Positions 3,279 through 25,702 of a DNA stretch of 32,000 nucleotides are shown here, one piece after another; the stretch's first letter is position 1, and every line of letters begins with the position of its first letter. Origin of the DNA: Candidatus Saccharimonadota bacterium. Its GTDB lineage: Bacteria; Patescibacteriota; Patescibacteriia; 2-12-FULL-60-25. Location: NCBI GenBank assembly GCA_963718585.1, contig OY970357.1, forward strand, positions 270,001 to 302,000, read 5' to 3'. The notes beneath the pieces are model-generated. The model did not search any database and had not been told where the DNA came from. It worked only from the letters and a program-made list of their open reading frames with translations. Position numbers and translations under genes: made by a program.

Positions 3279-3298
3279 ATACGCAAGGATCAGAACGA

Positions 3299-5913: not shown

Positions 5914-7416
5914 ATGCGAGAAAAACCACCGTCCTGCGTCACTGCGACGGATATCTATAAGTATATCCAGTGTCCGCATTGGCCATATTACGATCATCAC
6001 GCGACCCCAGCGGAACGGAAGAAAGAGCGCGCAGCGACGGAGGGAGAGGTACAACGGCGCGAAGACGGGATCGTCCACGAGACGGTAGCGATCGAAAAGT
6101 ACGCCGCCGAAGCGGGAGCGCGTATGGAAGAGGTCGCCGTCAAAGGCGATGCAGAAGCGGTCTTTGCGCGGACGATCGCACTCATGGAGGCGGGAACGCC
6201 GCTGATCTATCAAGGTATGCTCATTTTTGGTGACCTCCGTGGCCGACCGGATCTCTTGGAACGCAGGTCGGGGACAAGTAGGTTCGGGGATTGGATGTAT
6301 GTCCCCATCGACGTGAAGTCTTCCCATGACCTCTCCAAGTATCAGAAGCTTCAACTGACGTTCTATGCATTGCTTTTGGAAGCGGTTCAAGGGGTCTTCC
6401 CTCCGGAAGCGGTGATCATCAACCGGGATCATGTCTGCCTTCCGTTAGACCCCGTTGAAACGAAGATCGAGTGCAAGAAGGTCATCCGTGCGCTTACGGA
6501 GGAGATCCTGGGAGCGGTCAAGCCAGATCCGGTCTTGCGGAAATCCTGCCACGATATCGGGGTGTGGGGCAGACTCTGCGAAGCGGATGCGGAAAAGAAC
6601 AAAGATATCGCATTGTTGTACAACGTAAATGTTCAAAAGCTCCATTCATTGCGTACGCTTGGTATTCGGACCGTGGATGAAGCGGCGGAGATGGATCCGC
6701 AGGCGTTTGTCGGCGCCGCACCGGGATTGACCCTCCACGGGCTCGAGACGATCAAACGACAGGCACGATCATTGAAGGAGGAAAGCGTCCTCATTCGTAA
6801 AGCGGTCGAGCTCCCGATGGAGGGATGGGAGATCCATTTTGATATTGAAAGTGATCCACCGAATGACGTGGACTATCTGTACGGATTCTTGATCCGGCGT
6901 CCGGACGGATCGGAAGAATACCTGCCGTTCGTCGCGGAGACCTTGGAGCAGGAAGGGGAGATGTGGCGTCAATTCCTCGCGTGGCTTGAGACCCTTCCGA
7001 TGGAATATACGGTCTACCATTTCGGTGTCTATGAGGTCACGCGATTGCGGACGTTGGAAGAACGGTATGGAGGAAGTCATTGGCTTGATGCGTTCCGGGA
7101 AAGGATGACGGATCTCAAACCATTGACCACGTCGAGCGTGACCTTCCCCATCTATTTTTACGGGTTGAAATATATCGAAAGATTTCTCGGCTTCCGGTGG
7201 CGGAGCGAGGTGAAAAGCGGCGGACAGTCCGTCGATGCCTTTGAAAGATATCTCGAGACCGGAGATCGGAAGATCCTTGATGCGATCATCCTCTACAACG
7301 AGGACGATGTCCGGGCGACGGCACACCTGAAGGATTGGTTGGCGCGATACGCGCGTGAGATCACGGAATACGAGCCGCCCTTCCCGTGGAAGAAGAGACG
7401 GAAAAGTGCTGAATAG
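5914..7416 (+). CDS. TM0106-family RecB/Cas4-like PD-(D/E)xK nuclease fused to an RNase H-fold (YprB-like) exonuclease domain
   Basis: Trimmed to ATG 5914, 2 nt after the HD-gene stop. N-terminus ITATDIYKYIQCPHW, nuclease core GRPDLL...YVPIDVKSS, and Cys pair SCHDIGVWGRLC. C-terminal half HFDIESDP...YLYGF...YHFGVYE...YNEDDVRAT is typical of the DEDD/RNase H-like part of this family. Confidence 0.7.
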   Translation: MREKPPSCVTATDIYKYIQCPHWPYYDHHATPAERKKERAATEGEVQRREDGIVHETVAIEKYAAEAGARMEEVAVKGDAEAVFARTIALMEAGTPLIYQGMLIFGDLRGRPDLLERRSGTSRFGDWMYVPIDVKSSHDLSKYQKLQLTFYALLLEAVQGVFPPEAVIINRDHVCLPLDPVETKIECKKVIRALTEEILGAVKPDPVLRKSCHDIGVWGRLCEADAEKNKDIALLYNVNVQKLHSLRTLGIRTVDEAAEMDPQAFVGAAPGLTLHGLETIKRQARSLKEESVLIRKAVELPMEGWEIHFDIESDPPNDVDYLYGFLIRRPDGSEEYLPFVAETLEQEGEMWRQFLAWLETLPMEYTVYHFGVYEVTRLRTLEERYGGSHWLDAFRERMTDLKPLTTSSVTFPIYFYGLKYIERFLGFRWRSEVKSGGQSVDAFERYLETGDRKILDAIILYNEDDVRATAHLKDWLARYAREITEYEPPFPWKKRRKSAE

Positions 7417-9125: not shown

Positions 9126-9187
9126 ATCGTGTGAGTATACGCGCATTCCCGATCCCGTTCGAGTCTCACGCGCATATGATGACCCGC

Positions 9188-11171: not shown

Positions 11172-12449
11172 ATGAAGACCTTGTTTGATGCGGCAAATGC
11201 CCAGCGGCGGAAGATCTTTGCGCCGCTGGCGGATCGCATGCGGCCGGTATCTCTCGATGAGGTCCTTGGGCAGCCGGACCTGACGCGCGCGGGATCCCCC
11301 TTTCGGGCCGTGTTGGAATCAGGCTCTGTGCCTTCGATGATCCTGTGGGGACCGCCGGGGTCGGGGAAGACGACGTTGGCCCGACTCGTGGCCGAGATCG
11401 CGGGATTCGCATTCGTCCAATTGTCCGCGGTCACATCCGGGTTAGCCGAGGTGCGGCAGGTCATCCGTCAGGCGGAGAATGATCTTGATTTCAATGGCAA
11501 ACGGACGGTGCTTTTCATCGATGAGATCCATCGGTTCAACAAGGCGCAGCAGGATGCCTTTCTTCCCCACGTCGAAGCCGGGACCATGATCCTCGTGGGT
11601 GCGACGACGGAGAATCCGAGTTTTGAGGTGAACGCCGCTTTGTTGTCACGGTGTAAGGTCTTTGTCGTGCATCGGCTGGAAGAAGAAGATATCAAGACCA
11701 TCATCGAGCGCGCGCTGACGGATCCGGAGCGGGGATTGGGTGTCCAACCGGTCGTGATGCCGCCGGACGTACGTGAGGAGATCGTCATCGTCGCGGATGG
11801 GGATGCGCGGACCGCGTTGAACACGTTGGAGTATCTCGTCAAAGCGACGCCCGCGGTCGAGGACCCCAAGACCAAGAAGAAGCGCATCACACTCACACTG
11901 GAACGTCTGCGGACCCTGCTGCAAAGGTCTCATCATCTGTATGACAAGACCGGGGAAGAGCACTACAACATCATCTCCGCGCTCCACAAATCGCTGCGCG
12001 GGTCGGATGTGAACGCCTCGTTATATTGGCTCGGACGGATGCTTGAGAGCGGAGAGGACCCGTTGTATATCGCGCGTCGGTTGGTGCGGTTCGCCTCCGA
12101 AGACATCGGACTCGCGGATCCGCAGGCGCTCGTGCAGGCGACGACGGGATATCAAGCCAGCCATTATCTCGGCATGCCAGAGTGCAACGTGATCCTCGCG
12201 CAGGTCGTGGCGTATCTTGCGAAGGCCCCGAAGTCGAACAGACTGTACGAAGCCTATTCTGCCGTACGCGAGGATATCCGCCGTTTGCCGAACGCATCGG
12301 TTCCGCTCCACATCCGAAATGCTCCGACCAAACTCATGAAGGATCTGGGGTATGGCAAGGGCTATAAATACAACCCGGCCTACGCGGAGCCTGTGGAGCA
12401 GGATTACCTGCCCAATGAGCTGAAAGGCCGGACCTACCTTGAGGATTGA
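11172..12449 (+). CDS. rarA: replication-associated recombination protein A (MgsA/RarA AAA+ ATPase)
   Basis: Trimmed to ATG 11172 (MKTLFDAANAQ...). Walker A GPPGSGKTT, Walker B VLFIDEIHRFNKAQQD, and C-terminal MgsA region HYNIISALHKSLRGSD...LYWLGRML. Confidence 0.9.
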   Translation: MKTLFDAANAQRRKIFAPLADRMRPVSLDEVLGQPDLTRAGSPFRAVLESGSVPSMILWGPPGSGKTTLARLVAEIAGFAFVQLSAVTSGLAEVRQVIRQAENDLDFNGKRTVLFIDEIHRFNKAQQDAFLPHVEAGTMILVGATTENPSFEVNAALLSRCKVFVVHRLEEEDIKTIIERALTDPERGLGVQPVVMPPDVREEIVIVADGDARTALNTLEYLVKATPAVEDPKTKKKRITLTLERLRTLLQRSHHLYDKTGEEHYNIISALHKSLRGSDVNASLYWLGRMLESGEDPLYIARRLVRFASEDIGLADPQALVQATTGYQASHYLGMPECNVILAQVVAYLAKAPKSNRLYEAYSAVREDIRRLPNASVPLHIRNAPTKLMKDLGYGKGYKYNPAYAEPVEQDYLPNELKGRTYLED

Positions 12450-12475
12450 CCTTGGGCCACGGGCGCACGTTTGCG

Positions 12476-12484
12476 TGCTATCAT
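12476..12484 (+). promoter_or_regulatory. extended -10 box TGcTATCAT, 6 nt upstream of ATG 12491
   Basis: The 13-mer TGCGTGCTATCAT (12472-12484) is identical to 3876-3888. No SD before the ATG. Confidence 0.35.
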
Positions 12485-12490
12485 GGCCCC

Positions 12491-13531
12491 ATGAAGCGAT
12501 TTTTCGTCGTTCTGTTTCTTATCGTCCTTGTGGGGGCCGGGGGAACAGCGTGGTGGCTATTGCGCGACTCGCCGGACAAGGTGATCCGTGATGCTGTCAC
12601 CTCCTTGACCGCCCTCCAGGGAGCGGATCGCATGACGCTCGATGTCGCCGTGACGGATCCGCAGACCCGCGTGACGGGCGGGCTCACGTTTGTCGGACGT
12701 ATCAACGCGTCGGATCTGTCGCATGTGCAGGCGCTGGGGGTCGTCCAGTCGACGGCGCCGAAGGTCGGGGCCACGCCCGAGACCGTCGATGTCGTGATGA
12801 GTACGGATACGATCGCGTTGCGGCCGGTGCAGGTCGATGCGGAACAGGAAGCACGATACCAGGCCCTTGCGCAGGATCCGTCACACGCCACGTTCATCCG
12901 GGTCGATCGGGACGGTCTTTTGAAGAAGTACGGATATGGGGTCGGGGTCGCTCACGCCTCAGACGCCTCCATCCGGGAAGCTCTCCGTTCGATCGGCGGC
13001 ATCCCTCGCGCGGACGGGGGGATCACCGCGTCTACGGAGAATGGACGAGATGTATTGACCGTGCCATTCCACCTTGATGTCGGGAATCTCCGTGCATGGT
13101 TCATCACCGCGGTCCGCGCGTGGACCGGCGCAGCGCCGACACCGGAAGCATACGGTTGGATCGACCGGATCGTGAACGGAGCGGGACACGGGTCATTCCA
13201 GGTCACCATCGATTCGCAGACCCGATCCCTGGTCCGGATCGAAGGTTCGTGGCGTGTCGTGGATAATACGGGAAGTGTCCTCTCGCTCGTCCACGCCGTC
13301 TTTGAGACCGGACAGGCCGATGGGTTCGGTCCGATCACGATCCCACAAGGAGCATTGGATGTCAGTGACGCGCTTCTTGGGACGGGGACAGCGGCTCCGT
13401 CCGGACTGCCCGGATCGGCGACGCGTGCGGAACCGTTGCCCGTTGTCCGACCGACAACTCCGAGTACGCCGCAGATCGATCTCTTTTCGACATATCAGGA
13501 GGAGATCCGGAATAAAAAGAACGTGTATTGA
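12491..13531 (+). CDS. membrane-anchored hypothetical protein upstream of the PBP gene
   Basis: Trimmed to ATG 12491 (MKRFFVVLFLIVLVGAGGTAWWLL = signal anchor). 346 aa with a Pro/Thr-rich C-terminus. No recognisable motif. Confidence 0.55.
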   Translation: MKRFFVVLFLIVLVGAGGTAWWLLRDSPDKVIRDAVTSLTALQGADRMTLDVAVTDPQTRVTGGLTFVGRINASDLSHVQALGVVQSTAPKVGATPETVDVVMSTDTIALRPVQVDAEQEARYQALAQDPSHATFIRVDRDGLLKKYGYGVGVAHASDASIREALRSIGGIPRADGGITASTENGRDVLTVPFHLDVGNLRAWFITAVRAWTGAAPTPEAYGWIDRIVNGAGHGSFQVTIDSQTRSLVRIEGSWRVVDNTGSVLSLVHAVFETGQADGFGPITIPQGALDVSDALLGTGTAAPSGLPGSATRAEPLPVVRPTTPSTPQIDLFSTYQEEIRNKKNVY

Positions 13532-15346: not shown

Positions 15347-16662
15347 CTCGTATGACCATGAAACGTCTCATTGAACGGTTCCTCGGATGGTGTGTGCGCA
15401 TCTCGGTGGCGCGGGAGCGACCGCTGATCATCGCCGTTGCCGGTTCCGTCGGAAAATCCTCGACGAAGACCGCTATCGGGATCGCCCTGGGTGCCGGTGA
15501 GCTCGGAACCCGTGTTGCCGTATCCGCGAAGAACTACAACAACGAGCTGGGCATACCGCTTGCGATCTTCGGCTGCGACGCCCCGGGTCGTTCGGTGTGG
15601 AAGTGGCTTGTATTGATCGCAAAAGCGAAGTTGGTCGCATTCGGTCTTGCGCGGCTCCGTGCGAAGACCTTCGTCCTCGAGATGGCGGCGGATCACCCCG
15701 GAGACCTCGCGTATCTGACGCGGATCGCACCTCCGACCATGGGCGTCCTGACCGCCGTCGGACCGGAACATACGGAATTTTTGGGAGACGTTGACGGCGT
15801 TTTGAAAGAGGAGTCGACGGTCCTCACCGTCCTACCGCCGGATGGCGTGGCCGTGATCAACGCAGATGACCCCTTGGTTCGCGAGGCGGCGAATGACCTG
15901 TCGGCCAAACGGACAGCGTTTGGCATGGCGGAAGACGCGATCGTGCGTCTGCTGAGCACAGAAGTTGCGATCGATGCGGCACAGCCCGCATCATCCGGAT
16001 TGGACGTCACGGTCTGTCTCTACAATGTGCAAAGGACGTTTCGGCTGGTCGGGACGGTCGGGCGTCCGCAGGCGTATGCCGCTGCTGCGGCCATCGCAGT
16101 GGGGGATGCCATGGATCTGGATGTCGATGAGATGGTCGGACGGATCGCGGATCGATTCCATGGGATGGCCGGTCGGATGCGCCTATTGGAAGGGATCAAA
16201 CACACTTGGCTCATCGATGACTCCTATAATTCCTCTCCGCTCGCCGCACACTCTGCGATCCGTGATCTTGCCGCTTTCCCGGTGTCGGAAGGTGGTCGTC
16301 GGATCGCTGCGATGGGGGACATGCTTGAACTCGGCTCCTTGAGCGAAGAGGCGCACCGTGACATGGGATGCGCCATCGCGGAGAATGGGATTGACATGCT
16401 CGTCGCGTGTGGTACACTCGCGCACGTCGTTGCCGAGGCAGCGGTCGCACGGGGCATGTCCTCGGACGCGGTCTTCACATTCGCCAAGAGCTCCGAGGCG
16501 GGTCTGTTCATTCAGGACCGTTTGAAGGAACACGACGTGGTCTTGGTCAAAGGGTCGCAAGGAGCGCGGATGGAACGGATCAGCAAAGAGCTGATGGCCC
16601 ATCCGGAAAAAGCGGAGAAGTTGCTTGTGAGGCATACGAAGGATTGGCTCGAGAGAAGCTAG
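15343..16662 (+). CDS. murF: UDP-N-acetylmuramoyl-tripeptide--D-alanyl-D-alanine ligase
   Basis: Trimmed to ATG 15343, which overlaps the PBP stop (ATGA). Mur-ligase P-loop GSVGKSSTK, and the DDSYNSSP motif that I associate with MurF. Confidence 0.85.
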   Translation: MTRMTMKRLIERFLGWCVRISVARERPLIIAVAGSVGKSSTKTAIGIALGAGELGTRVAVSAKNYNNELGIPLAIFGCDAPGRSVWKWLVLIAKAKLVAFGLARLRAKTFVLEMAADHPGDLAYLTRIAPPTMGVLTAVGPEHTEFLGDVDGVLKEESTVLTVLPPDGVAVINADDPLVREAANDLSAKRTAFGMAEDAIVRLLSTEVAIDAAQPASSGLDVTVCLYNVQRTFRLVGTVGRPQAYAAAAAIAVGDAMDLDVDEMVGRIADRFHGMAGRMRLLEGIKHTWLIDDSYNSSPLAAHSAIRDLAAFPVSEGGRRIAAMGDMLELGSLSEEAHRDMGCAIAENGIDMLVACGTLAHVVAEAAVARGMSSDAVFTFAKSSEAGLFIQDRLKEHDVVLVKGSQGARMERISKELMAHPEKAEKLLVRHTKDWLERS

Positions 16663-16743
16663 AATCTAGAAGCTAGAATCTAGTGAGCCTGTAAGTCTGC
16701 CTACACTGTTCTCGCCTAGATTCTAGACCCAGCTTCTAGATCC
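16657..16743. repeat. CTAG-rich tandem plus inverted repeat forming a long imperfect hairpin
   Basis: 14-nt tandem units AGCTAGAATCTAGA / AGCTAGAATCTAGT at 16657-16684. Their reverse complement CTAGATTCTAG..AGCTTCTAGA lies at 16716-16740. Seven CTAG tetramers in 87 nt. Overlaps the murF stop and ends 7 nt before tRNA-Glu. Confidence 0.7.
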
Positions 16744-16749
16744 TCCCAC

Positions 16750-16824
16750 GGCGCCATCGTCTATCGGTTAGGACGCTAGGTTCTCATCCTGGAAAGAGGG
16801 GTTCGATTCCCCTTGGCGCTACCA
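16750..16824 (+). tRNA. tRNA-Glu (anticodon CTC)
   Basis: GGCGCCA-TC-GTCT-ATCGGTTA-GGAC-G-CTAGG-TTCTCAT-CCTGG-AAAG-AGGGG-TTCGATT-CCCCT-TGGCGCT-A-CCA. 75 nt, G1:U72 wobble. Confidence 0.9.
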
Positions 16825-16861
16825 AACAGAAAACCCCCGAAATGGGGGTTTTCTGTTTGGT
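16821..16861 (+). terminator. terminator hairpin whose 5' arm starts in the ACCA end of tRNA-Glu
   Basis: Perfect 18-bp stem ACCAAACAGAAAACCCCC / GGGGGTTTTCTGTTTGGT with loop GAAAT. U-rich 3' arm. Confidence 0.6.
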
Positions 16862-17014
16862 GTTGAACAAGCAGGGGATCAAACGGGGAGGGATAGGAAA
16901 CCGGGAGGTTCCCTTGGCAGAGGGAAGGAGTCTGCCCGGGGCGGACGAGTTGGGAACCGATGGGTTCCCAAAAGCGAACGGAGTGAGCGTGAGATTCCCC
17001 TTGGCGCTACCAAA
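16862..17014 (+). repeat. tRNA-tail-capped structured module, copy G (ends in a 22-nt perfect copy of the tRNA-Glu 3' end)
   Basis: GATTCCCCTTGGCGCTACCAAA at 16993-17014 equals 16805-16826. The body contains GCAGGGGATCAAACGGGGAGGG, two GGAACC/GGTTCC hairpins and AGCGAACGGAGTGAGC, collinear with 25455-25593. No conserved ORF. Confidence 0.6.
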
Positions 17015-17050
17015 TACAACACCCACCGCAAGGCGGGTGTTGTATTTGGT
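17009..17050 (+). terminator. second terminator hairpin, starting in the duplicated ACCA
   Basis: 16-bp stem ACCAAATACAACACCC / GGGTGTTGTATTTGGT plus a 2-bp tip capped by a GCAA loop. Confidence 0.55.
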
Positions 17051-17137
17051 ATGACGAAGAGTTAGCGCGAGGTTTTTCATGCTCCGACCCTTGTTCGGAA
17101 CCGTGTTTTCTGCTAGGGTCGCTTTTGGAGGAGTGCC

Positions 17138-24966: not shown

Positions 24967-25077
24967 AGGGGGCCACCGCCACTCGCGAGCGGCGGGACAG
25001 GCGTCGGTCAGTGAAAGTACAACGGTCTCCAACCCCGCCTCTCGCGAGAGGCGGGGCGATTCCTTCCGCCCTCCACC
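24967..25077 (+). pseudogene. degenerate tRNA-Trp-like pseudogene interrupted by two CTCGCGAG-centred palindromes
   Basis: AGGGGGC (5' acceptor-like), then AGTACAACGGTCTCCAA at 25016-25032, identical to 25362-25378 of tRNA-Trp (D-stem 3' side through the anticodon CCA). It ends in CGATTCCTTCCGCCCTCCACC, resembling the tRNA-Trp T-loop-to-3' end. The anticodon-stem 3' side and T-stem 5' side are replaced by a 24-nt palindrome, so no cloverleaf is possible. Confidence 0.55.
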
Positions 25078-25086
25078 CTTCATGAT

Positions 25087-25338
25087 ATGTTCTGTGTCTA
25101 TCTTCTTCGATCGTTAAAGGATCGAGGATTCTACATCGGATTCACGACACGTGAGCCGAGGGATCGATTTGTAGAGCACCAAGACGGTCTCGTTGATTCG
25201 ACAAAGGATCGACGGCCCGTAGAACTGATCTACTTCGAAGCGTATGCTGATGAAGGGTTGGCCCGACAACGAGAAAGACATTTGAAAGATTTTGGATCCT
25301 CATATGTCGGGTTGCTCAAAAGATTGGGTCTTAAATAG
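25087..25338 (+). CDS. small stand-alone GIY-YIG nuclease-superfamily protein (YhbQ/COG2827-like)
   Basis: 83 aa: CVYLLRS..GFYIGFT (GIY...YIG-type strands), RFVEH, conserved Arg/Glu (PVELIYFEAY...ARQRERHLK). Ends 4 nt before tRNA-Trp. Confidence 0.8.
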   Translation: MFCVYLLRSLKDRGFYIGFTTREPRDRFVEHQDGLVDSTKDRRPVELIYFEAYADEGLARQRERHLKDFGSSYVGLLKRLGLK

Positions 25339-25342
25339 ACAA

Positions 25343-25416
25343 GGGGGCGTCGTATAATGGTAGTACAACGGTCTCCAAAACCGTTTGCGTAGGTTCGATT
25401 CCTGCCGCCCCTGCCA
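25343..25416 (+). tRNA. tRNA-Trp (anticodon CCA)
   Basis: GGGGGCG-TC-GTAT-AATGGTA-GTAC-A-ACGGT-CTCCAAA-ACCGT-TTGC-GTAGG-TTCGATT-CCTGC-CGCCCCT-G-CCA. 74 nt, G1:U72 wobble. Confidence 0.9.
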
Positions 25417-25454
25417 GACAAAAAGATCCGCCAAACGGCGGATCTTTTGTATGG
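25414..25454 (+). terminator. terminator hairpin starting in the CCA of tRNA-Trp
   Basis: Core stem GATCCGCC / GGCGGATC with loop AAAC, extended by A/T pairs and CCA..TGG. U-rich 3' arm (CTTTTGT). Confidence 0.6.
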
Positions 25455-25593
25455 CAATGGGTCGGGCGGAGGAATCGAACCTGGGAAAGGGTGAAAACGG
25501 AAGTTTTCACATGCTGAGGAGGGCCTGCGGGAACCCGAAGGTTCCCGCAAGAGGAGCGCCAGCGACGAGTGAGCATTCCTGCCGCCCCTGCCA
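25455..25593 (+). repeat. tRNA-tail-capped structured module, copy W1 (ends in a 19-nt perfect copy of the tRNA-Trp 3' end)
   Basis: ATTCCTGCCGCCCCTGCCA at 25575-25593 equals 25398-25416. The body contains GCGGAGGAATCGAACCTGGGAAAGG, a GTGAAAAC-GGAA-GTTTTCAC hairpin, a TGCGGGAACC-CGAA-GGTTCCCGCA hairpin and AGCGACGAGTGAGC, collinear with 16862-17014. Confidence 0.6.
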
Positions 25594-25630
25594 TGAAAAT
25601 CCTGACGGATACACCCGTCAGGATTTTCAT
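25593..25630 (+). terminator. terminator hairpin after the duplicated tRNA-Trp tail
   Basis: Perfect 16-bp stem ATGAAAATCCTGACGG / CCGTCAGGATTTTCAT with loop ATACAC. The stem starts at the final A of the duplicated CCA. Confidence 0.6.
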
Positions 25631-25635
25631 AACCG

Positions 25636-25702
25636 GTCGCAGGGATCGAACGGGGAGGGGGATATCAGGCAAAACACGCACCTTTCCGGTGAGTGTCATT
25701 TC
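25636..25702 (+). repeat. truncated third copy (W2) of the module
   Basis: GCAGGGATCGAACGGGGAGGG (25639-25659) is near-identical to 16871-16892. CCGGTGAGTGTCATTTC (25686-25702) resembles the right-hand block ..GAGTGAGCATTCC. The internal hairpins are absent, and the copy overlaps the stop of the minus-strand gene. Confidence 0.45.

Follow-up and report, generated by a model that had tools for sequence, protein, structure and literature searches.

Genomic islands and prophages that integrate into tRNA genes leave a recognizable signature. A direct repeat of the 3' segment of the tRNA gene, beginning in the T-loop, flanks the insert; the tRNA itself stays intact; new units enter next to the tRNA and push older ones outward; and relatives include both filled and empty sites. 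Williams reportedly described, in 2002, the T-loop and the anticodon loop as the two classic crossover sublocations of such elements. Here we analyse a 32-kb stretch of contig OY970357.1 (hereafter the window), part of a ~1.08-Mb genome, in which inserts behind two of the six tRNA genes (found by ARAGORN and Rfam), those for tRNA-Trp and tRNA-Glu, have all of this in common with tRNA-integrating islands and prophages; in a more distant relative, type C, the repeat begins at the anticodon loop instead. These modules differ from islands and prophages in measuring 110-190 bp rather than kilobases, in carrying neither integrase nor cargo, in having a conserved, covarying body and an extra, inverted copy of the target, in a direct repeat that in one related locus (L083) includes the terminator, and in lacking inverted core-type sites flanking the crossover at the junction. 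The module on the tRNA flank is no ordinary prophage scar. The initial annotation had held that it fits no known feature class; that was too strong, since direct repeats of a tRNA 3' end starting at the T-loop are the classic signature of site-specific integration. We favour, with about even confidence, the reading that the modules are miniature non-autonomous insertion elements devoid of open reading frames (ORFs), with specificity for the 3' sides of Patescibacteria tRNA genes and mobilised in trans.

The module behind tRNA-Trp (type A) lies on the forward strand, as does its target, the tRNA-Trp (CCA) gene at 25343-25416 (ARAGORN; Rfam tRNA, 63.9 bits), whose segment from the T-loop to the 3' end (25398-25416) forms the first copy of the direct repeat. 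A hairpin, ACAAAAAGATCCGCC-AAAC-GGCGGATCTTTTGT, follows at 25418-25450; its stem of an A-tract and a T-tract gives it a bidirectional look. Because the T-run sits inside the stem, the terminator scan misses this hairpin, and since a simple scan calls the A/T-stem hairpins of neither locus, we name them terminator-like only. The left block (TGGGTCGGGCGGAGGAATCGAACC, 25458-25481) is an imperfect inverted copy of the 3' part of tRNA-Trp, and its core GGAGGAATCGAA matches the reverse complement of the T-loop and the T-stem 3' strand at 11 of 12 positions. The conserved body (25482-25574), supported by folding, alignment, covariation and the profile test given below, comprises the purine block GGGAAAGG, hairpin 1 with a GGAA loop (25491-25510), GAGGAGGG (25516-25523), hairpin 2 (25526-25549) and a linker ending in GAGTGAGC (25567-25574). 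The tail (25575-25593) exactly repeats the last 19 nt of tRNA-Trp, from A58 of the T-loop to CCA, and constitutes the second copy of the direct repeat; the sequence, ATTCCTGCCGCCCCTGCCA, occurs in the window only at these two places, against 0.01 expected by chance. A second terminator-like hairpin, TGAAAATCCTGACGG-ATACAC-CCGTCAGGATTTTCA, closes the unit (25594-25629) and resembles the first terminator of a related locus, L008, with a score only at the 88th percentile. Comparison with L008 identifies 25635-25661 as what is left of an older type B module, namely its left block and the start of purine block 1 (GGTCGCAGGGATCGAACGGGGAGGGGG), without body or tail. This segment had been counted as a third copy; it is only a left-block remnant.

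The module behind tRNA-Glu (CTC) has the same layout, again on the forward strand. The tRNA gene (16750-16824, ARAGORN and Rfam) ends in the first repeat copy (16805-16824), and is followed by a terminator-like hairpin (16825-16860) whose stem extends into the CCA and which is like the terminators of module-free tRNA-Glu sites in L140 and L143. The type B module (16861-16992), supported by the same lines of evidence, contains in order the left-block core GGGGATCAAAC (16874-16884), GGGGAGGG, hairpin 1 (16896-16912), GAGGGAAGG, an extra hairpin with the arms GTCTGCC/GGCGGAC and one T.G pair (16930-16946), hairpin 2 (16950-16971) and AGCGAACGGAGTGAGC (16973-16988). Its tail (16993-17012) is an exact 20-nt copy of the tRNA-Glu 3' end, with identity running 2 nt further; GATTCCCCTTGGCGCTACCA is found in the window only here and within the tRNA (0.00 expected by chance). 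The second hairpin (17013-17051) is terminator-like and has 20-nt arms that are 95% complementary. At both loci the tRNA 3' end recurs ~160-170 nt downstream, and the insert of 158-188 bp holds no ORF and has no integrase gene within or adjacent to it. Every unit ends with its own terminator-like hairpin.

The two window copies have the same order of parts, that is, left block, hairpin 1, purine block, hairpin 2 and AGCGA..GAGTGAGC. All six structural points of the initial annotation were found where it had placed them, including the collinear order and the tails as exact 3' ends of the upstream tRNA. Its statement that reading frames are not conserved also holds: indels of 1, 2 and 18 nt separate the copies and thereby exclude a shared reading frame. 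The bodies are only 58% identical, and neither finds the other by single-sequence nhmmer. Direct pairwise homology, not being significant, was abandoned in favour of a profile built from the bodies of non-window members only, with tails removed. This profile gives exactly two significant matches in the 32 kb, at 25471-25572 (E 2.3e-16) and 16878-16985 (E 1.5e-11), and because it matches both copies we regard them as related. A profile of type B members alone reaches the type A window copy collinearly (E 0.019).

Further members were sought in loci from species-representative genomes and metagenomes (designated by L-numbers), collected with a hairpin-2 pattern or via flanking genes. The search found them in other genomes, each with the tail of its local tRNA, behind tRNA-Glu(TTC) in L005 and L110, tRNA-Trp in L008, tRNA-Gly in L083 and tRNA-Lys in L074, with covariance model scores of 91-122 bits. 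Two subfamilies can be distinguished. Type A consists of the window Trp copy and those of L005 (Glu), L083 (Gly) and L074 (Lys), whose bodies are 63-79% identical to one another; type B consists of the window Glu copy and those of L008 (Trp) and L110 (Glu). With type A at Trp, Glu, Gly and Lys and type B at Glu and Trp, the subfamily is independent of tRNA identity. The covariance model found no further copies in ~390 kb of related loci. Judged by neighbouring proteins, the hosts are Patescibacteria near Candidatus Uhrbacteria; their GC content ranges from 31% (L083) to 58% (window), while the module bodies keep ~50-60% GC throughout and are still alike. Throughout the family the modules are hairpin-rich, without genes and directly behind tRNA genes. 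Rfam, scanned with the whole window at the gathering threshold and with both loci and ten related ones by E-value, returned only tRNAs, 5S rRNA and scattered sub-threshold noise, and a full-text literature search gave no description of such tRNA-flank modules. Relatives of a third type, C, were observed as well. L111 has two tandem copies (1-170 and 230-410), each with a tRNA-Met-like 3' half at its end; this half begins at the anticodon loop, where the junction lies, and an inverted copy of that loop precedes it. L064 carries a type C body (7181-7340, minus strand) without any tRNA piece.

In all members the tail copies the local tRNA from T-loop position 57-59 to the end of the gene. The duplication is 15-22 nt long, except in L083, where the direct repeat takes in the whole terminator (~45 nt). 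Where CCA is not encoded, the repeat follows the gene and not the mature tRNA, ending in CAC in L005 and CAAAA in L074. Priming by mature tRNA, as at a primer-binding site, was ruled out on these grounds (CAC, CAAAA, whole terminator). The right junction always reads GAGTGAG(C)/ATTCC, with the inverted target copy ~100 nt away rather than flanking the crossover, and the distal tails lack the TTCG that precedes the same sequence inside the tRNA gene. The left block likewise follows the local tRNA. It is an inverted copy of the T-loop and the T-stem 3' strand that matches at 12 of 12 positions in L005 and L008 and more weakly in the window Glu copy; in L110, where the tRNA has the unusual T-loop TTCGACT, the left block reads AGTCGAA. 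The initial annotation had described this block as a reversed T-arm closing the module by pairing with the tail. The first half of that description stands, but pairing of the block with the 3' part of the tRNA itself, across the first terminator, is no weaker than with the distal tail, and in L110, L083 and L008 the block fits the tRNA's copy better than that tail. Only one-sided changes were found in the alignment of the closing helix. Together with the first hairpin and the left block, the 3' part of the tRNA forms one long imperfect palindrome, which explains the spurious microRNA-precursor hits at 25380-25494 and 25576-25643 in the Rfam E-value scans.

The internal hairpins covary. Those at 25491-25510, 25526-25549, 16896-16912 and 16950-16971 form by folding, as had been described, and the compensatory change noted between the two window copies is borne out by an alignment of hairpins 1 and 2 from seven members compared with 500 shuffles. 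Pairing is retained in 92.5% of cells versus 83% in the shuffled alignments, and 12 cells are changed on both sides versus 3.9 (none of the 500 shuffles reached 12). Compensatory changes affect 4 of the 6 pairs of hairpin 1 and 2 of the 10 pairs of hairpin 2, and when partner columns were slid, pairing fell to 37-64%. The stems are almost purely Watson-Crick; the few wobble pairs are all G.T on the tRNA-sense strand, and on this strand the hairpin-1 loops read GNNA or GNA. The loop had been called GNRA; it is GNNA and not strictly GNRA. Hairpin 2 has CGAA and GATG loops in the window copies. From the wobbles and the GNNA/GNA loops we infer that the sense strand is the folded one, as RNA or as single-stranded DNA. 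Folding energy favours neither strand (z -4.1/-4.1 for Trp, -1.4/-3.1 for Glu). Two other structural candidates were discarded. A tRNA-like or transfer-messenger-RNA-like (tmRNA-like) gene on the minus strand was ruled out, as ARAGORN finds none and the would-be T-stem is unpaired in type B; nor was there a match to the tRNA-like RNAs considered (tmRNA, tRNA-like structures (TLS), mascRNA, YrlA), ARAGORN returning the six tRNAs only and Rfam no consistent hit. A hammerhead-like CUGANGA core in the purine block was ruled out because CUGA is not conserved and no GAAA follows hairpin 2.

These observations bear most directly on the main rival explanation, that the module is a structured noncoding RNA gene. 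Read-through of the terminator would place it on the tRNA transcript; the closing helix of left block and tail would mimic an acceptor/T-arm minihelix with an NCCA end, RNase P, RNase Z and the CCA-adding enzyme would release the small RNA, and a conserved host factor would be bound through the hairpins and purine-rich junctions. The covarying hairpins, the GNNA loops and G.T wobbles confined to the tRNA-sense strand, the maintenance of the body in hosts of 31-58% GC, the constant orientation of the module with its tRNA, the terminator-like hairpin after the module and the fold z-score of -4.1 for the Trp copy are all as such a gene would have them. On the other hand, a promoter scan found no promoter-like site at the Trp or the Glu locus, a terminator-like hairpin lies between tRNA and module, orthologous sites of close relatives lack the module, and tandem copies occur of which the distal ones decay. 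A generic minihelix, moreover, need not copy each host tRNA, and where a gene encodes no CCA (L005, L074, L083), the repeat copies the gene as it stands instead of the mature end. The module matches no Rfam family, its stems are nearly all Watson-Crick and its minus strand folds equally well. We consider this explanation unlikely. The small RNA with a tRNA-like end proposed in the initial annotation is accordingly weakened by the missing promoter, the patchy presence in close relatives and the visible decay.

Orthologous sites were located by their upstream neighbours, the GIY-YIG gene in the case of tRNA-Trp and the Mur ligase gene in that of tRNA-Glu. A search for empty sites in relatives succeeded at both. 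Behind the Mur ligase gene, L139, L140, L142, L145 and L146/147 have a plain hairpin but no module after tRNA-Glu(CTC), and tRNA-Trp has no module in L131, L134, L135/136, L139, L140 and L142. The Trp sites form a nested series, with no module in L131, a type B module in L008, and type A plus a type B remnant in the window. The hairpin after the module tail in L008 resembles the one directly behind tRNA-Trp in L131, and the hairpin plus type B left block behind tRNA-Trp in L008 resembles the sequence after the type A tail in the window. L110 has three units in tandem, the most distal degenerate. Remnants consisting only of a left block were found as well: behind the L074 module; in the window behind tRNA-Pro and its terminator (9157-9169, minus strand), where GTGAGACTCGAAC, an exact 13-nt inverted T-loop/T-stem copy, is followed by GGGATCGGGAA; and, as a left-block-like sequence, behind tRNA-Tyr and its terminator (3283-3296, plus strand), where the 12-nt core CAAGGATCAGAA of GCAAGGATCAGAAC has 2 mismatches to the inverted T-loop/T-stem. 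With the Trp and Glu modules, these bring to 4 of 4 the window tRNAs ending a transcription unit that bear a module or a remnant. Filled and empty sites, stacking and decay characterise an insertion element that is active in certain lineages and later decays.

An insertion element of a conventional kind could also have left such sites if the modules were eroded att-site stubs of ordinary tRNA-integrating prophages or islands, their P and P' arms fused once the interior of a kb-sized integrase element had been deleted. Direct repeats of the tRNA 3' end from the T-loop or anticodon loop, tandem accretion and the large serine recombinase genes adjoining tRNA-Trp in L134 and L140 agree with this, but the sequence behind tRNA-Trp in those two loci has neither left block nor body. 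The same compact collinear architecture and size in every copy would not be expected from independent deletions, and hairpin covariation implies selection on structure. A search for full-length versions with integrase or cargo found neither a long version nor an integrase fragment in ~20 relevant loci. The stubs, which had been proposed as one of three candidates, are disfavoured by the lack of a longer version or integrase remnant and by covarying hairpins across 31-58% GC, and we consider them very unlikely. The candidate that fits best is the miniature tRNA-targeting element, given its presence at at least four tRNA types, subfamilies independent of the tRNA, empty sites, and tandem and decayed copies.

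If the modules are miniature elements mobilised in trans, each insertion would be made by an enzyme encoded elsewhere, a site-specific recombinase or strand transferase. DNA would be joined within the T-loop, giving an intact tRNA with a terminator and a duplicated tail, and the body hairpins together with the complementarity of left block and tail may serve as a folded single-strand recognition structure, comparable to integron attC, CTX attP and the ends of IS200/IS605. The T-loop junctions and the anticodon-loop junction of type C favour a site-specific strand-exchange enzyme acting in trans. Two geometries can be envisaged. In the first, a unit of tail, terminator, left block and body would enter at the T-loop in the manner of an integrase element and replace the tRNA 3' end with its own copy, which the series from L131 through L008 to the window Trp locus fits. 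In the second, left block and body would enter behind the native terminator, duplicating tail and terminator; this fits the identical hairpins of L083 and the proximal hairpins of the window Glu and Pro loci, which resemble those of module-free relatives (AACA[C/G]AAAACCCCC in L140 and L143). Hairpins flanking one module tend to be alike (5 of 7 pairs at or above the 80th percentile), although unrelated terminators score as high. Terminator similarity was for this reason dropped as a guide to the native terminator, these low-complexity sequences scoring like putative orthologues even when unrelated.

The palindrome and the duplicated terminators would also be expected if the modules arose without any enzyme, as by-products of replication. 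The nascent strand would fold back at the terminator palindrome and reverse-copy the tRNA 3' part into a left block; template switches via the universally conserved T-loop would bring in a body copied from the flank of a different tRNA, with the return at ATTCC, yielding the direct-inverted-direct layout with tail and terminator duplicated; and gene conversion and quasi-palindrome correction would then keep tail and left block matched to the tRNA. Consistent with this are the one long imperfect palindrome, the ~45-nt direct repeat of L083, which spans the tail and the whole terminator (likewise the pseudo-tRNA copy of L132), left blocks that in L110, L083 and L008 are closer to the tRNA's copy than to the distal one, the position of both junctions within the sole sequence common to all tRNAs, and the likeness of flanking terminators in 5 of 7 pairs, a weak statistic given how high unrelated terminators score. 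Yet three coordinated switches would be required many times over with identical body boundaries (AATCGAAC ... GAGTGAGC), and the covarying hairpins and the conservation of the body across phyla would go unexplained. We regard a replication by-product as decidedly unlikely.

Pairing between module and target could play a more active part. The left block (antisense) and the tail (sense) might act as the module's own guides, pairing with both target strands as single-stranded DNA or RNA, which would make the module a nucleic-acid-programmed element; we put this forward tentatively, as an unlikely extension. It would be analogous in principle to guide pairing in IS200/IS605 or to the bridge RNAs of IS110, but with an ORF-less unit of ~150 nt and the enzyme in trans, a parallel we likewise draw with low confidence. 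If true, a module could switch tRNA targets by changing just its left block and tail. A different proposal is that of a stand-alone guide RNA, consisting of a scaffold, a 19-22-nt 3' spacer (the tRNA tail) and a terminator, for a TnpB- or Cas12-like nuclease or transposase encoded elsewhere, with TTCGA of the gene's T-loop as the adjacent motif and the module homing to tRNA genes. The layout, a conserved body of ~100 nt followed by a host-specific 3' segment of 19-22 nt and a terminator-like hairpin, is suggestive, as is the absence from the distal tail of the TTCG that precedes the same sequence in the tRNA. But the intact tRNA would go on being targeted by its own guide, the left block has no explanation here, no promoter was detected, there is no match to Rfam or other known guide scaffolds and the window encodes no such nuclease, and we hold this proposal to be highly improbable.

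Several points weigh against the elements mobilised in trans that we favour. The loci disagree on geometry: the Trp series fits entry at the T-loop, whereas at Glu and Pro the terminators fit insertion downstream of the native one. The loci examined yielded neither a circular junction or excision scar nor a long autonomous version, and three search patterns gave no true match in viral contigs, nor was there one in phage or plasmid records. Among the Pfam-scanned ORFs of the window, 32 kb of a ~1.08-Mb genome, there is no integrase, transposase, HUH nuclease or reverse transcriptase; nor did Pfam find a TnpB/Cas12-like nuclease, a DEDD recombinase, Cas1 or IntI there. The Pfam-matched ORFs are all housekeeping (peptidase M16, TIM, PBP, Mur ligases, P-type ATPase, EngB and others). 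With only 9-10 full copies the covariation statistics are thin, and strong structural conservation over a wide GC range is also expected of a functional RNA. Finally, ordinary integrase chemistry does not explain the left block. By analogy, this block could be a target duplex rebuilt in a folded single strand (as in attC or CTX attP), a guide that pairs (as in IS200/IS605) or the product of strand fold-back in replication.

A number of other features were noted around these sites. Upstream of the Trp locus, a pseudo-tRNA-Trp (24996-25077) precedes an 83-aa GIY-YIG nuclease ORF (25087-25338) and then the intact tRNA-Trp. Over its 5' part the pseudo-tRNA shares 79% identity with the intact gene; GC-rich hairpins with GCGA loops break it up, and the hairpin insert joins the tail at T-loop position 57/58, like the modules. 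The same pseudo-tRNA-Trp/GIY-YIG layout is present in L008 (6700-6790), while in L132/133 the 3' part of the pseudo-tRNA lies downstream of the intact gene instead, with the terminator duplicated. Directly upstream of tRNA-Glu, direct and inverted copies of CTAGAATCTAG cluster at 16654-16745 (7 matches vs 0.16 expected); this could be a promoter/operator region or another small repeat element. GC skew is positive across the whole window, so that the structured strand of both full modules would fall on the lagging-strand template; with two cases, this carries little weight.

The 3' flanks of tRNA genes in these genomes are hot spots for insertions in general. The large serine recombinase genes adjoining the tRNA-Trp terminator lie at 3466-4992 in L134 and at 18126-19745 in L140, and an IS1595 transposase gene (11696-12550) is found ~250 nt after tRNA-Glu in L145. 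Directly after tRNA-Glu in L140 (11381-11400) there is a 15-nt hairpin, TCGCGTTAAACGCGA, with TACCA duplicated on both sides, giving it the look of a very small palindromic insertion that duplicated 5 nt of target. Independent assemblies end at the module position, L143 and L144 10 nt after tRNA-Glu and L001 (10409-10517) inside a Trp module, which suggests that modules disrupt short-read assembly at tRNA genes.

The hairpin-2 pattern also gave 120 metagenome hits, most of which are not chance matches but an 85-nt intergenic repeat of three hairpins. The repeat has the form GGCGGC-GNA-GCCGCC, GTCCGC-GAAG-GCGGAC, CAGGGGAGGGG, the hairpin GGGGAACC-GGGA-GGTTCCCC and finally ..GAGTGA, with GCGAAGC or GNA loops at the hairpin tips. 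Copies lie at 2154-2238 of L014, 3702-3781 of L015, 8247-8330 of L025 and ~30 other loci, between rpsE and rpmD, before dnaJ and elsewhere, on contigs whose SecY is 86-94% identical to SecY labelled Gaiellaceae (Actinomycetota, soil). No Rfam family matches this repeat. It has in common with type B modules the purine block GGGGAGGGG, the GGGA hairpin and GAGTGA, and it has no tRNA tail. Homology between repeat and modules is plausible from these sequences, with the reservation that part of the likeness was imposed by the search pattern. The hairpin cassette seems older and broader than its tRNA-linked form, and a core common to an abundant Gaiellaceae repeat hints at a broader, undescribed class of hairpin cassettes.

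If they are mini-elements mobilised in trans, the modules would be the smallest known units homing to tRNA genes, ones that restore the gene, supply or duplicate a terminator and have sequence matched to the target at either end. They would provide a compact natural system for studying how tRNA 3' ends get recognised as integration sites, and could point to an unknown recombinase or strand transferase in Patescibacteria. In practical terms, spurious ORFs arise from them, and to island-finding software they look like prophage att sites.

Beyond islands and prophages, the modules can be compared with several known systems. Like the cis-mobilizable elements (CIMEs) derived from streptococcal integrative and conjugative elements (ICEs), and like miniature inverted-repeat transposable elements (MITEs), they are small, have no genes of their own and are presumed to be mobilised in trans. 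CIMEs, however, are kb-sized with recognisable att arms of a known ICE, and MITEs have transposase-type terminal inverted repeats and target duplications of 2-10 bp, whereas the module ends are target copies and 15-45 bp are duplicated. The casposons, some of which target tRNA 3' ends, and CRISPR spacer integration are similar in their long duplication and polar, leader-proximal addition; the modules differ from casposons in lacking terminal inverted repeats, a fixed duplication length (14-15 bp) and Cas1, and in being mutually homologous units. With the guide RNAs of OMEGA systems (TnpB/IscB) the likeness is one of layout only, there being no nuclease gene near the modules and no Rfam match, and the bridge or seek RNA of IS110 sits in the non-coding end of an element with a DEDD recombinase, an ORF of which the window has none.

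Two further comparisons concern the hairpins themselves. Integron attC and CTX attP are also imperfect inverted repeats that refold into a target-like duplex, and arrays grow from a fixed site with polarity; in addition, the left-block core ATCGAAC agrees at 6 of 7 positions with the inverse core site RYYYAAC (R'') of attC. In contrast to attC, there is no GTTRRRY (R') at the 3' end of the unit and the junction is at T-loop 57/58 rather than G/TT; the modules come without IntI, and an involvement of Xer is unsupported. Repetitive extragenic palindromic (REP) sequences and bacterial interspersed mosaic elements (BIMEs), REPINs with their REP-associated tyrosine transposase (RAYT, a Y1 HUH enzyme) and IS200/IS605 are, like the modules, intergenic mosaics of short stable hairpins with GNA or GNNA loops and conserved linkers at the 3' ends of transcription units, and IS200/IS605 reads its target and cleavage sites by pairing with an internal guide, a role that the left block could have. 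Unlike REP and BIME, the modules have no GTAG-type head, sit strictly at the 3' ends of Patescibacteria tRNA genes and carry a long target duplication, and the window encodes neither RAYT nor TnpA. Though a hairpin mosaic in makeup, the module was found in Patescibacteria at tRNAs only, and we place it both with site-specific tRNA-targeting elements and with miniature, REP-like hairpin cassettes.

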